Counted from the stretch's first letter, positions 7,879 to 58,838 are shown. The stretch is DNA of 64,000 nucleotides from Eledone cirrhosa (GCA_964016885.1 OZ024743.1:288114001-288178000), one strand, 5' to 3'. Notes: generated by a model not told the origin, from the sequence alone. A program made the numbers and translations.

Positions 7879-8144
7879 TATTTCTTCGTAGTGTGTGCGT
7901 GTGTATCTGCGTGTCTGCGGATTCTTTATGTATACACACCCACACACACATATATATATATATATGCATATGTGTACACGTTAGTATGTTTTGGTGAGAT
8001 TATGTGGGAGTTGGTCGTCTGCGTATATAGATGTGTTTATGTACATACATATATATACATACATATATCCATATATATATATATATATATATATATATAT
8101 TAAGAGAGTAAAACAAAGAAGCCTTCAATACATCAAAAGTCTTT

Positions 8145-8189
8145 ATTAGCCGACAATGTTTCGTCCTATTAAGGACTCATCAGGCCAAT
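8145..8189 (-). ncRNA. Type I minimal hammerhead ribozyme (imperfect stem I)
   Basis: Minus strand reads attggc CTGATGA GTCC ttaata GGAC GAAAC att GTC ggctaat. Confidence 0.8.
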
Positions 8190-9727
8190 TAGAACAACAA
8201 GAAGTAATATCGGCAGATACAAGCCGGAAGCTCCGAAGAATATGGAGTGTACATACACTAAAGTATTGCAAAAATATATAATACAAATAATAAAAATATA
8301 TAATAAAAATAATAAAAATTACTAAGGATGTATATAACATTAAGAACCATATTACAAATATAGTCCAAAGCAAAAAACCTAGAGCTAAACAAAGGTGGTT
8401 ATATAGAGCAGGAATTATATATAATACAATGTAATATAATTTAATATACCTTTACCAACATTAAAATTACAATAAAAATCAAAAGGTACAATATGCATAT
8501 GTATATATGTGCGCACACGTACACACACATACACATACAACAATACACACATCCATCTTCAACTGCACAAATTAAACCTTATTAAGAGTTTGAATATAAA
8601 AATAAGCATGATATGAATGAAAATGATAATAATAATAATACTAATACATCTACCCAATATACATGAGGTAATAATATGATATAATTATAAGTAGCACATA
8701 TAATAAATAATAAACAATACAATTATATACTATATAATACAATATAATAGAATGGATAATCTCCGGTTAATTTACACAAACAATATAGATGTCACAATAA
8801 TAATATAATAATAATATACTAACATTTATAATATACAATATACTAACATTTATAATAAACAATATATAATGGTACTCAAGTTAACAAATCAATTCATACT
8901 GGGTTACAGAGTAGGTGAGGAAAAATAAATTGTACAATACCCCCAAAAAAATTTTGATGGTACAAAAAATATACAAACATCTTACATGATATATAAAGTT
9001 TAACATATCATAATGTTACATATAATTAACGGTAAGTAATAAGGATCAATATTACAATAAAAAATACAATATAATATAATATATTATATAAAATAAATTA
9101 ACATAATATAATATATAATTACTTATAATTACAAGGTTGGTAGACAGACATGTATATGGATGAGTGAGTAAGTGCCAGACAGTAAATATAATGCACAGTA
9201 GTATTACAAATAAAATGTAAAATATAAAATATAGAATAAATAAATAAATAGAATCAACCGGAAATTAAAAAAACAAAAACAAACGTATACATTTAGGTCT
9301 CACATGCAGTTAAGTAGTTAAGTAAAAACTAAGGAAATAACCCCGGTAAATGACTCGAAAACCCTATTTGATAAATTAATATTAAAAATATTTAAACTAT
9401 CCAATAAGGCAGTATAATATTAGCTATAGTTTAAGTAATTAAAGTTTATAAATGTTAATATTTCGTTACAAATGTTTATTAAGGTAAAGGTATATTAAAT
9501 TATATTACATTGTATTATATATAATTCCTGCTCTATATAACCACCTTTGTTTAGCTCTAGGTTTTTTGCTTTGGACTATATTTGTAATATGGTTCTTAAT
9601 GTTATATACATCCTTAGTAATTTTTATTATTTTTATTATATATTTTTGCAATACTTTAGTGAATGTACACTCCATATTCTTCGGAGCTTCCGGCTTGTAT
9701 CTGCCGATATTACTTCTTGTTGTTCTA

Positions 9728-9772
9728 ATTGCCCTGATGAGTCCTTAATAGGACGAAACATTGTCGGCTAAT
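9728..9772 (+). ncRNA. Type I minimal hammerhead ribozyme
   Basis: attgcc CTGATGA GTCC ttaata GGAC GAAAC att GTC^ggc(t)aat. Intact core; predicted cleavage after 9765. Confidence 0.85.
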
Positions 9773-10433
9773 AAAGACTTTTGATGTATTGAAGGCTTCT
9801 TTGTTTTACTCTCTTAATTTTTCGGCTATGTTTAACTACCTTGAGCTATACCTTTTACTGTCATTTCTATAATACGAAGAGGGTGTTTAACTCCAACACG
9901 CTCCAGTATTTTAGCCCTTATATATATATATATTTAGGTATATACATACATACATACATACACACACACATATATATAAATATATATATATTTATATATA
10001 TGTATGCGCGCGTGTGTGTGTGTGCATGTTTGTCTTGTAGGCCACCTCAACTCTGCAATTTTAATATATCAATAGCTATTATTTATTTTAATCTTTTCTC
10101 TAAGACTATAATTAATATGACGATTTCAGGGATTTAAAGAATTAAAGATTTAAGATAAACTTGCCTCCGTTTGAACATTATTAATAGAAGAACGAATTAG
10201 TTCCCTTCCTTTTCTAGTACTGATAAACGGGAATGCGTCCTATAAGTTATTTAACTACAAAGAAGTATTGCCGATATGACAGATATAATAATATTAATAT
10301 TTTCCTTCGTATTTAACGAATTTCTACCTGTTTTGACCTTTGCAAAGCAAAGCACCCTCTTTTTGCACTTTTTCCCTTGATATTTTAAAATATTTCCACC
10401 AATTTTAGTTTTTCTAGAACACACACACACACA

Positions 10434-10743
10434 TATATATATAATATATATATATAATATATATATATATATATATATAATATATATATAATATATATAT
10501 ATATAATATATATATATATATAATATATAATATATATATATAATATATATATATATATATATATAATATATATATAATATATATATATATAATATATATA
10601 TATATATAATATATAATATATATATATATATAATATATATATATATATATAATATATATATAATATATATATATATAATATATATATATATATATATATA
10701 ATATATATATATATATATATAATATATATATAATATATATATA
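10434..10743. repeat. Long interrupted (TA)n/(TAA) microsatellite, one of dozens in the window
   Basis: Direct reading. Confidence 0.95.
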
Positions 10744-10746
10744 AGG

Positions 10747-10932
10747 GTGGTGGATTGGCAGTATCAGTAGAGGGTAGGACGCCATGCTTTCCAGCATAGT
10801 TACGTCCCTTTATGATCTGAGTTCAAATCCCGCCGAGGTTGACTTTGCCTTTCATCCTTACGGGGTCGATAAAATAAAGTACCAGTAATGCACTGGGTAA
10901 TTTGCTGGCCTTGTGCCTAAAGTAGAAACAAT
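10747..10932 (+). mobile_element. SINE family A, full length
   Basis: ggtggtggattggcagtatc...gagttcaaatcccgccgagg...agtagaaacaa. Confidence 0.9.
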
Positions 10933-56092: not shown

Positions 56093-56540
56093 TAGACCTG
56101 AAAAATGCGCAAGCTCAAAAGAGCCACAGCATGTTATAATAAACCTTCAAAAGTGTGGCACTAGAGTTGTTGCTCAAAAATATTGTAATCATTATCTATC
56201 GTACACTCTGTGGCACCCTTTTATAAAAAAGAAACACATAACGAACTCAAGACGACACGATAATTATTTAAGTAAATTTATAATATAGAATTCGGTTTAA
56301 GTGCATTTCGTATTAATCATTACTAAACATCTAATATGAGATAATAAACATTAGCTTAAATAATTATCGTGTCGTCTTGAGTTAGTTATGAGCCTCTTTT
56401 TTTATAAAAGTATGCCACACCACACAGTGTACGATAGTTAATGATTACAATATTTTTTAGCAACGACTCTAGTCCCACACTTTTGAAGGTTTATTATAAC
56501 ATTCTGTGGCTCTTTTGAGCTTGCCCATTTTTCAGGTCTA
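56093..56540. repeat. Diverged foldback with about 180-bp arms and about 80-bp spacer
   Basis: tagacctgaaaaatg.gcaagctcaaaagagccacag...acgataattatttaag (56093-56272) mirrored at 56354-56540. Confidence 0.85.
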
Positions 56541-56560
56541 GTATATATATATATATATAT

Positions 56561-56835
56561 GGAAAAAAGATGAAATCGAAAATGCAACTGGAGTCTTTTA
56601 AAAAATATAAATATATTTATTTGGTTCTTTTACCGGTTTCGCAGTTCTTCTGCTTTTCAAAAGTAGAATTTAGATGGAGGGTTTGTGGGTTTTCTCACAT
56701 CTCAGATGTATTTATGTTTTAAAGAAAAAAACCTGTTGCATTTTCGATTTCATCTTTTTTCCTTATACCTTCACTCGTGTAGGACACCTCGGTTATATTT
56801 TTCATTTTGTAAAAAAAAAAACCTCCCTTTCTAAT
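56561..56835. mobile_element. Foldback insertion: 28-bp arms plus about 70 nt tail, with decayed HHR
   Basis: ggaaaaaagatgaaatcgaaaatgcaac / gttgcattttcgatttcatcttttttcc. Minus strand cttt TGAAAA GCAG aagaa CTGC GAAAC CG GTA aaag. Relative at 30710-30851. Confidence 0.75.
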
Positions 56836-57696
56836 AATATATATATATATACCTGGTAAAGCATTGAATAGATAAATATAAAGAATAAAGATGTGTATTC
56901 CTGAATAATCAGGAAGTGACTTATTCTGTTAAGTCGAAAGGATTAACAGAATGTAACGAAAAGCAAAGAAAAGGATTCAATAACAACAATAGCAGCAGCA
57001 GCAGCTACGGTAAGTCGATCTATGTATGTGAGACGAAAGCATCACTTACAGTAACAACAAAAACGGAATGTGCGTGTATAAACATACATAGATACAAATA
57101 CATAGAAGCGCGCACACACACTACTATATGTAGATATGCTTTTATTATTATTTTTTGTTTTTAGTACACACACACATACATATATATAAGCGGGGGCTGG
57201 ATCAGTGAAAAAAAGTAAGCTTTATATATATATACCCTGACCACTGAAATGTGCATAGTGTTTGCACCAATGAATAATTAAGGAAATTCAACATTTTTGG
57301 CCTCCTGTAATTTCACGTTATAATATATATATATATATATATATATATATATATATATATATATATATATATATATATATATATATATATATATATATAT
57401 ATATATATATATATATATATATATATATATATATATACACACATACTTTATTTTGTATCTATTTCGTAAAATTCTTGATGTGAAACCATGTGCTGAAACA
57501 GAGACTGTTATAATTTCGGCGTGACATGCTGTCAATAAAAACACACGCATCAGTTGATGTTACTCTTCAGTTGATTAATTGATCCATTTACTATTTAATC
57601 CATATTATTTTTTGTCTTTTTTCGTTATTTCTCACCGAGTTTGTTTTCCCACTTTGACGTCACTTTCTCTCTCTTTAATATATATATATATATATT

Positions 57697-58410
57697 TGTT
57701 TTGCGAGGTTTTTTTATATGAAATCGTGTGCCGAAACAAATATTGTTATACTCGGGGAGGGTCATATTGTTGTAATAATATTGCCAGAAATAATAACAGA
57801 ACACACTCACTGTTTGGTTGGTTTTCGCTTCTGTATCTTTTTATATCTTCACAGTTAATTCATTCGGTCCTCAATGTTTATCATTGACTGACCAACGGTC
57901 AAAGGTAGGGATATAAATACATATATATAGTCTAACAGATCAAATAAAAAATGGCGTAGACATACAATACAACAGGAGGAACACAATAGTACCACTGATG
58001 ATGTTGCAGATGTGCAAAAAAAGAATTTGTTAGGCTATATATATGTATTTATATCTGTATTTTTGAGCGTTGGTCAGTCAATGATAAACATTGAGGACCG
58101 AATGAATTAACTGTGGAGATATAAAAGATACAGAAGCGAAAATCAACCAAACAGTGAGTGCGTTCTGTTATTATTTCTGGCAATTGGCAGTATCGGTAGA
58201 GAGTCGGACGCCATGCTTTGAAGCACAGAGTTACCTCCCTTTATGATGTGAGTTCAAATCCCGCCAAGGTTAACTTTGCCTTTCATCCTTACAGGGTCGA
58301 TAAAATAAAGTACCAGTAATACACTGGGATAATTGCTGGCCTTGTGCCAAAACTAGAAACAATTATTTCTGGCAATATTATTACAACAATATGACCCTCC
58401 CCAAGTATAT
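57697..58410 (+). mobile_element. pLTR-only insertion of the 36-kb PLE family (inverted arm with tail plus body), interrupted by a SINE
   Basis: 57697-57903 is antisense pLTR with tail. About 57935-58410 is sense pLTR. Confidence 0.9.
58185..58361 (+). mobile_element. SINE family A with 15-bp TSD
   Basis: TSD attatttctggcaat at 58170-58184 and 58362-58376. Confidence 0.95.
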
Positions 58411-58558
58411 CTATATATACTTGGGGAGGGTCATATTGTTGTAATAATATTGCCAGAAATAATTGTTTCTAGTTTTGGCACAAGGCCAGCAATTATCCCA
58501 GTGTATTACCGGTACTTTATTTTACTGGTACTATATATATATATATATATATATATAT

Positions 58559-58838
58559 GTAGAGGTTATATTTAATTTGTTGGGATACAAGCAAAATATT
58601 GTTATAACTGATATAAAGCACTCAACAAATTATTGGAGTAAAAATACAATATATTAACAAATGGAAACTGTATTTATAACACCATATTTATTTCATTTTT
58701 TCAGGGTATGTCAATATTTATTTATAAAACTAACCTATATTATATTTTATCTGATGAAAGCGCACCATAGTTTGCCTTGGTGGCCCTTGAAATAGATATG
58801 GTTTTATAAATATAGTTTCCATTTGTTAATATATTGTA
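58559..58838. mobile_element. Foldback insertion: about 50-bp arms plus about 85 nt tail, with HHR-like core
   Basis: About 58646-58695 vs 58788-58838. CTGATGA AAG.GCACCA...TGGTGGC.CTT GAAA at 58751-58792; stem I not evident. Confidence 0.7.

Follow-up and report, generated by a model that had tools for sequence, protein, structure and literature searches.

Fold-back insertions of Penelope-like elements in Eledone cirrhosa may record two internal priming events on one RNA

How do short palindromic insertions arise in which one arm stops at a TA tract and the other runs 40-100 nucleotides (nt) further? The question is raised by a stretch of 64,000 nt of Eledone cirrhosa DNA (GCA_964016885.1 OZ024743.1:288114001-288178000, here the window; G000:C4:288114001-288178000 in our numbering, from an assembly of 3.0 Gb in 1796 contigs), in which a sequence-only reading had listed 17 such sites. 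We consider it probable that these fold-backs are two-armed insertions of endonuclease-positive (EN+) Penelope-like elements (PLEs) and of passengers without an open reading frame (ORF), one RNA having been copied twice from two internal sites. The published insertion unit of EN+ PLEs comprises a pseudo-long terminal repeat (pLTR), an adjacent inverted 5'-truncated copy and an optional tail (PMC3846280, PMC8557442; statements on published work refer throughout to the accessible portions of the cited sources). How the inverted repeats and tails arise is described there as unsolved (PMC8557442), and work on the PLE PAc in vitro left the later insertion steps unvalidated (PMC11167929).

All 17 sites show an inverted repeat that extends by 40-100 nt on one side only, according to masked self-BLAST, local alignment, the printed sequence and the family map, which bears out the layout described by the sequence-only reading. 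Sixteen of the inverted repeats are BLAST matches at E <=1e-6, the exception being that at 18830. The fold-backs cover about 9.1 kb together and belong to 11 families, named after window coordinates: F22266 (four sites), the P1 group (three sites, at 21984, 35611 and 57696), F22894 (two sites), F8100, F18071, F27410, F29657, F38190, F54499, F56561 and F58559. Positions within families are counted from the short end, that of the tailless arm, and +1 denotes the candidate inner start discussed below. The fold-backs and one hammerhead are as follows:

8101-9918: F8100, Hydra-type; tailless arm 8101-9478 (- strand), tail arm 9471-9918 (+ strand), tail 9819-9918 (100 nt)
8145-8189, - strand: type I hammerhead in the F8100 pLTR (Rfam RF00163, 33.5 bits, E 1.6e-4; gathering value 34)
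18071-18203: F18071, Hydra-type; tail 18071-18156 (about 86 nt), palindrome 18157-18207
18830-18924: F22266, minimal fold-back; tail 77 nt, palindrome of only 18 nt
21984-22207: F21985, a subfamily within the group of the 35.6-kb PLE; perfect palindrome of 164 nt; the 60-nt tail codes for the N-terminus of the ORF
22266-22476: F22266, Hydra-type; tail 79 nt; both arms start at the candidate +1 (22323 on the - strand, 22341 on the + strand), with an extra G before each
22890-23130: F22894, Hydra-type; tail about 67 nt; hammerhead-like core in both arms by eye
27410 to about 28505 (right end approximate): F27410, tandem unit of about 450 bp without an ORF, hammerhead-bearing and retrozyme-like; tail about 75 nt by eye
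29658-29931: F29657; tail 75-80 nt; hammerhead with a long stem II
30887-31076: F22266; tail about 79 nt; extra G before +1 on the left arm
31093-31210: F22894 group; tail 65 nt; tailless end adjoining (TCTA)n
35611-38070: young coding PLE family P1; tailless arm 35611-37936 (- strand), tail arm 37936-38070 (+ strand), tail 38001-38070 (70 nt)
38192-38621: F38190, ORF-less tandem unit of about 630 bp; tail 40 nt
54495-54822: F54499; tail 85 nt; hammerhead core at 54715; long arm preceded by an extra G and starting at the candidate +1 (54646)
55048-55219: F22266, older copy; tail 67 nt
56561-56836: F56561, Neptune/Nematis type; tail 74 nt; tailless arm from the candidate +1 (56702) after an extra G
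57696-58410: P1-related subfamily; tail about 56 nt; right arm interrupted by a short interspersed element (SINE) at about 58185-58361
58559-58836: F58559, Hydra-type; tail 88 nt; hammerhead core at 58751

The insertions had been said to lie all in (TA)n. This is correct for most sites, the exceptions being 22890, which adjoins (GA)n, 31210, which adjoins (TCTA)n, and 27410-28505, which adjoins (TG)n and (TC)n ahead of a TA tract. Beyond the window, copies were counted against 12 natural long copies used as yardsticks, in 360 loci plus the window; duplicates were dropped by flank sequence, arm pairs split by a long TA tract were removed and F27410 was excluded. The unselected sample consists of 54 random stretches. 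Loci found with a query are ranked by similarity to it, and query-selected and unselected copies are therefore counted apart. Among the outer ends of unselected fold-backs, 167 of 192 have (TA)3 within 14 nt, compared with a fraction of 0.105 of random positions. Each searched family has 1,213 to 3,274 candidates, and 540 kb of unselected sequence contain 25 fold-backs, about 46 per Mb, which extrapolates to some 140,000 in the genome. Unpaired arms are common (42 in the same 540 kb); some of them are probably simple one-armed insertions, mixed in this count with pairs missed by the script.

The fold-backs of the ORF-linked families are almost certainly derived from PLEs, as the sequence-only reading had proposed. 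It had also pointed out that the coding PLE at 35.6-38.1 kb has the layout of the short insertions, and the fold-back at 35611-38070 does combine inverted arms and a 70-nt tail with a coding region:

36131-37957, - strand: 5'-truncated P1 ORF with reverse transcriptase (RT; YVDD), CX4CxxC linker and GIY-YIG with CCHH

This ORF has at least 72 matches at 99-100% identity. The full frame of the P1 family spans 1217 amino acids (aa) from stop to stop, with YVDD, the CX4CxxC linker and GIY-YIG with CCHH, and matches the Neptune/Nematis pattern of a CX2-5CxxC linker plus CCHH in the endonuclease (PMC8557442). The F56561 ORF remnant also shows a CX2-5CxxC linker and CCHH, of Neptune or Nematis type. 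Tandem P1 ORFs lie about 4.1 kb apart in two loci (L106 and L108), with pLTR matches flanking the ORFs on both sides. A further family, P2, present in the window as a piece at 23401, encodes a 758-aa ORF with the Hydra-clade motifs (PMC8557442) RWR, DKT, CNCLNKEAC, CDLC and CMH. Hydra-type ORF starts are reached by read-through of the tail in F8100 (L174, L179), F18071 (L043) and F22266 (L157), and Hydra-type ORF ends lie upstream of the arms in F22894 (L065, L068), F58559 (L065) and F8100 and, in one copy only and by eye, in F29657. F56561 descends from a remnant with RT, linker and GIY-YIG (L063). The expected linkage to RT-GIY-YIG ORFs was found for eight of the 11 families, the others being F54499, F27410 and F38190; the last two form tandem units without an ORF (about 450 and 630 bp, respectively). 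Pfam matches are weak and below the cut-off (RVT_1, E 5e-4; GIY-YIG, E 0.015 and 7e-4), with none for full-length P1, and a PDB sequence search gave no significant match. The catalytic motifs can be read in the sequence, and Atlas neighbours at 0.95-0.99 carry RVT_1, HTH_animal and GIY-YIG, consistent with an RT plus GIY-YIG protein.

Hammerhead motifs lie in the pLTR on the sense strand. A hammerhead descriptor was positive in seven of 13 families, none of 100 shuffles scoring equally, and weakly so in F56561 as well (1/100); it gave no match in P1, F22266, F22894, F38190 and F8100, the last having the Rfam match listed above and a mirror copy of that motif near 9734-9759 (+ strand). In P1, F22894, F22266 and F56561 the cores were recognized by eye only, those of F22266 and F56561 being of the U3-A8 variant (PMC4209133). 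The Rfam scan of the window by e-value, of which the best 150 of 422 matches were considered, gave one hammerhead among these 150 and mostly microRNA matches to palindromes or TA repeats. The passengers differ from each other in this respect: F27410 consists of tandem ORF-less monomers with a descriptor hammerhead, and tandem F38190 has only a degenerate motif recognized by eye. F27410 is like the non-LTR retrozymes, ORF-less tandem units with a hammerhead, which the abstract of 10.64898/2026.07.22.740005 describes from vertebrates as non-autonomous PLE derivatives with rolling-circle mobilisation. Unlike in that account, the units found here carry the two-end fold-back footprint of the coding PLEs.

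The outer ends of the insertions are fixed within families, while junctions and centres are specific to each copy. This was observed in F22266 (30 printed loci, including the window copy) and likewise in F54499 and F56561, and endpoints constant within families are what the sequence-only reading had led one to look for. Since the outer ends are constant and the centre varies from copy to copy, the inversion must be formed anew at each insertion. The near-uniform size, the palindromic look, the TA flanks and the large number of candidates per family could otherwise suggest miniature inverted-repeat transposable elements (MITEs) of DNA transposons, spreading as whole palindromic units. However, the copy-specific junctions, the asymmetry of the repeats and the presence of identical termini on RT-GIY-YIG ORFs do not fit such elements; no transposase link was noticed, although no search was aimed at one. 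For the eight ORF-linked families the MITE reading is refuted, and overall its probability is negligible.

The two outer ends obey a pairing rule. A short end is combined with a long one in 211 of 226 fold-backs, with nine long-long and six short-short pairs; the corresponding numbers in unselected fold-backs are 86 of 96, four and six, against 50% expected if the ends were independent (p 1.6e-16). In P1, read from 30 loci, short ends lie at +0, +6 and +9 and long ends at +55, +57 and +70, three arms passing +70; most of its long ends fall at TA or AT in the template, which suggests short primer-template pairing. In read-through copies, the P1 tail corresponds approximately to codons 5-27 of the ORF, and that of four Hydra-type families to the 5' untranslated region (UTR) leading to the ATG.

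The sequence-only reading had taken the tail length as the distance from the RT start to the RNA 3' end, so that one arm would derive from an internal RT site and the other from that end. The sharply fixed tail ends of most families would agree with this, but copies of P1, P2, F8100, F18071, F22266 and F38190 read through the tail end. Because the tail runs into the start of the next unit in these copies, both outer ends are internal and neither is the RNA 3' end. P1 has, moreover, several long ends, and hammerhead cleavage is predicted upstream of the short end and not where the tail ends. An arm from the RNA 3' end is thus very unlikely. The wording also departs from the study on which it drew, where the tail is defined by two internal RT starts and the sequence between them (PMC11167929). 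As a separate observation, a T/A-N-GAG-Y-R-C motif occurs 17-45 nt into the tail of F22266, P2, F18071, F58559, F54499 and F29657, in some cases in a small hairpin. It was found in six of the 12 yardsticks, none of Neptune type, in a count made without a chance control, and is a possible candidate for a protein-binding site.

If both ends are internal, it has to be asked whether the two arms derive from one template. Arms of the same insertion disagree at 132 of 1148 polymorphic subfamily-diagnostic cells, where random pairing predicts 461; the background is 455 of 14553 (3.1%), and part of the disagreement above it sits in a homopolymer stretch of F56561. The shared subfamily variants indicate the same RNA or the same source locus. 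Such concordance would also result if one cDNA folded back and copied itself, stopping before the tail, by self-priming as proposed in PMC3846280. In favour of this, 46 of 77 clean unselected junctions are symmetric within 10 nt, and some long P1 fold-backs, chosen for ORFs in both arms, are near-symmetric 2.3-3 kb upstream. However, in the other unselected cases the tailless arm reaches further 5' in 15 and the tail arm in 16; among all classified copies the tailless arm is the longer in 74 of 196 (15 of 211 were set aside as unclear), and in the coding copy of the window it measures 2305 nt compared with 65 nt. A copy of the tail arm cannot outgrow its template, and one made from the tailless arm would find no tail to copy. 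Copy-back of a single cDNA therefore cannot explain any insertion whose tailless arm extends further 5' than the tail arm. Extra G residues on both arms of eight insertions, described below, also speak against it. Self-priming is contradicted for the asymmetric copies and could account for a subset of the symmetric ones; as a general explanation it is quite improbable.

The inner ends of the arms provide further evidence. A candidate +1 was read from alignments in six families (F22266, P2, F18071, F56561, F54499 and F29657); in the first five it is placed 58, 68, 71, 145 and 166 nt, respectively, upstream of the short end. Of 138 unselected arms, 89 begin between -6 and +8 relative to the candidate +1, 21 upstream of this interval and 28 downstream. 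The contexts are initiator-like (TTAGT, TCAGT, CCAGA, TCATA). Long copies passing through +1 have T or C before the site and G in 0 of 64. Arms starting at +1 have G at -1 in 63 of 158, or 63 of 77 when the element's own base is set aside, and in a strict control the G was present at 7 of 9 starts at +1 compared with 12 of 69 internal breaks (p 5e-4). When a full-length RNA is retrotransposed, copying of its cap usually leaves such an additional 5' G. In Penelope, a promoter with an initiator lies within the pLTR (PMC2377424). With their fixed start and extra G, the arms resemble complete leader run-off copies, not random truncations. The insertions had been called extremely truncated, and this description needs correction in five of the six families, where many arms start at a fixed site with the extra G. 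Short slip-back direct duplications of the first 7-8 nt at the start, in eight F54499 and four F56561 arms (e.g. L298, L304, L322), are best explained by re-annealing on the extra G.

A fixed inner start could also be a splice acceptor, the G being the end of an upstream exon or of a spliced leader. AG opens four of the six sites and follows a pyrimidine-rich run in three of these, and in Drosophila virilis the intron extends as far as the 5' end of helix I (PMC4209133). However, F54499, which contributes most G arms, lacks AG at this place, the copies have no bases further upstream in common, and none of 63 could be matched to a donor upstream in the yardsticks. Splicing is therefore a highly improbable source of the signal.

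Perfect palindromes may form in library preparation, and fold-back chimeras produced by sequencing or assembly have to be considered as well. Against them, the arms have diverged by about 3% with age and the ends are family-specific. Raw reads (amplified short Illumina reads) of three 2026 restriction-site associated DNA (RAD) runs, placed on a long F22266 arm, exit into (TA)n in thousands at the short end and in about 1,200-1,500 cases at the tail end, with strand-switch joints at 2103-2111, near the candidate +1. Contigs from a run labelled as another organism show the same short end. Chimeras are accordingly a vanishingly small possibility. A fall of RAD depth at the candidate +1 was not used, as the molecule ends at 2106 and 2117 coincide with AATT, present in the stretch or in its variants, and are probably restriction cuts. 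Contigs matched to window positions 21960-23160 included no spanning piece and no empty site. Folding back of F22266 on a long perfect stem II was considered at first and given up in view of the long copies.

Taken in order, the proposed insertion of one RNA copied twice would begin with nicking of both strands of a (TA)n tract by the GIY-YIG endonuclease. The two 3' ends would prime at sites 40-100 nt apart, just beyond the pLTR hammerhead, and the tail would therefore equal the distance between the priming sites. Both cDNAs would extend toward the RNA 5' end. On transcripts from a promoter inside the pLTR they would run off after 60-170 nt, in a strong-stop-like manner, with the cap copied as an extra G; on read-through or tandem transcripts they would extend up to full length or halt early. 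The cDNA ends would then be joined head to head, probably by a template jump, giving the palindrome and the second strand. In LINE-1 twin priming two target nicks likewise prime on one RNA and produce an inversion, and in retroviral strong-stop synthesis a short cDNA runs off the RNA 5' end. However, the two parts of an L1 inversion are different RNA segments, priming takes place at the poly(A) tail, and retroviral priming at a tRNA site, whereas here both arms copy the same segment and priming would lie near the 5' region of the RNA.

A stronger version is plausible without being quite probable: the PLE RT would start near the 5' end of its own capped transcript, and its default product would be paired strong-stop-like leader cDNAs joined head to head. 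If so, fold-back joining would be the integration step itself, with the pLTR and the tail as by-products; full-length copies would require tandem read-through RNA; and some 10^5 MITE-looking palindromes would chart, as fossils, where PLE transcription starts and where priming takes place.

Several observations weigh against the account of two primings on a capped leader. The arm concordance fits two RNAs from one locus too, and in 10 query-selected F22266 copies the short arm has C and the long arm T at one site, without explanation. No ORF was found upstream of F54499 in the stretches examined, although this family has a clean hammerhead and the tail motif common to Hydra families. The extra G is seen in five of the six families, F29657 being without it (3 of 10), and 45 of the 63 G arms come from query-selected loci of the same family, the unselected proportion being 18 of 61 arms. 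As the +1 positions were picked after viewing the alignments, the p-values for G are optimistic. Copies of P1, F21985, F38190, F8100, F22894 and F58559 show no single sharp start, in samples that were small or selected for long copies. The capped start at +1 is inferred from genomic copies. Finally, in P2 (-68) and F18071 (-71) helix I of the hammerhead has its 5' edge at the +1 itself, which is compatible with a structural stop.

This last point, together with the shortness of the arms and the nearby hammerheads of most families, would suit a stalling of RT at the hammerhead fold on a long RNA, the G being added by terminal transferase activity with no capped start. However, the site is situated within loop II in F22266 and some 70 nt upstream of the core in F54499, few internal breaks have the G, and a fold would be expected to halt RT on its 3' side. 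Stalling is therefore an unlikely explanation, though one with some substance. The apparently arm-specific C/T variant of F22266 disappeared in unselected copies (20 C/C, 1 T/C) and does not count as evidence of two templates.

The inverted copy, the one-sided tail and the (TA)n bias are already published; new here are the end rule in quantified form, the constraints of one template and two primings, and the signal of the extra G. Canonical EN+ PLEs (PMC3846280, PMC8557442) share with these insertions the head-to-head copy, the one-sided tail overlapping the ORF start, the (TA)n preference and the pLTR hammerhead, and a tail encoding the ORF N-terminus was reported earlier for Adineta elements (PMC3846280). 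In contrast to the published tails of 30-40 nt, those found here measure 40-100 nt, most insertions are only 100-450 bp long, the short-plus-long rule is quantified, and five families have fixed inner ends that bear an extra G. The Poseidon element PAc of Anolis, studied in vitro (PMC11167929), also has two internal RT starts bounding the tail, cutting of both strands, starts downstream of the hammerhead near the ORF start and AT-rich targets; a dimer was predicted in that system. The elements described here belong to other clades, their ends lie mostly at TA or AT in the template while PAc starts at a non-homologous site, and the inverted joining and the run-off at the cap proposed here are absent from the accessible PAc account.

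The Hydra clade (PMC8557442) shares RWR in place of RWK, DKT, a CxCX5C linker, CxxC and CxH around the endonuclease end, a short ORF, a hammerhead and (TA)n targets. It was described from few, mostly cnidarian, families, whereas here several abundant families supply most fold-backs. Pairs of opposite-strand hammerheads 100-700 bp apart have been noted as probable truncated PLEs (PMC4209133). The octopus repeat annotation, in its accessible portion, lists MITEs, unclassified terminal inverted repeat elements and many unclassified SINE families and does not describe this anatomy (PMC13282606). About 46 fold-backs per Mb could pass as MITEs or unclassified repeats in such annotation and, if transcribed, would be a large source of double-stranded RNA. 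A literature search, with most subscription journals outside its range, found no report making a cap-G or twin-priming claim for PLEs. The copies provide rules that any PLE mechanism must satisfy and base-level predictions for starts, caps and priming sites in two lineages.

Some further observations concern the families themselves. P1 is very young and abundant, with many intact 1217-aa frames that contain a long Asn-rich insert, and some of its copies are multi-kb near-symmetric palindromes. The Hydra-clade family P2 is young, with numerous identical ORFs of 758 aa and a long 3' UTR rich in microsatellites; many of its copies stop at variable points within the ORF. Insertions of different families cluster within the same TA tracts. 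The right overhang at the 54499 site is a second insertion, of family F18071. The window contains three additional pieces outside the 17 sites:

23401-24111, - strand: arm of Hydra-clade P2, reading about 390 nt past the tail into the ORF; hammerhead at 23829-23852
48595-48958: F21985 insertion in which an inverted arm of 44 nt meets a sense piece carrying the broken C-terminus of GIY-YIG
54833-54935: separate F18071 insertion, directly right of the 54499 fold-back

One-armed insertions of the same families are found at 16560-16651, 22492-22677, 24124-24194, 30709-30846 and 19665-19719. At 58301-58524 there is a 224-nt palindrome of 98% identity, centred on the 3' end of a P1-like arm and including part of a SINE; it is joined tail to tail, the reverse geometry of the other fold-backs. 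Another palindromic repeat family, with 82% arms, occupies 56084-56550 and has several copies in locus L046. An open frame at 61109-61519, without a Pfam match, resembles by eye what we take to be the C-terminus of an RTE-type long interspersed element. A SINE-like repeat of about 185 nt is abundant (72 matches in 400 kb of unselected sequence), with copies at 7698-7882, 10750-10932, 15443-15627, 21592-21776, 30192-30367, 40268-40466, 58183-58367, 59309-59492 and 62394-62580, and a tRNA-like Rfam match (52.8 bits) lies at 17882-17952.

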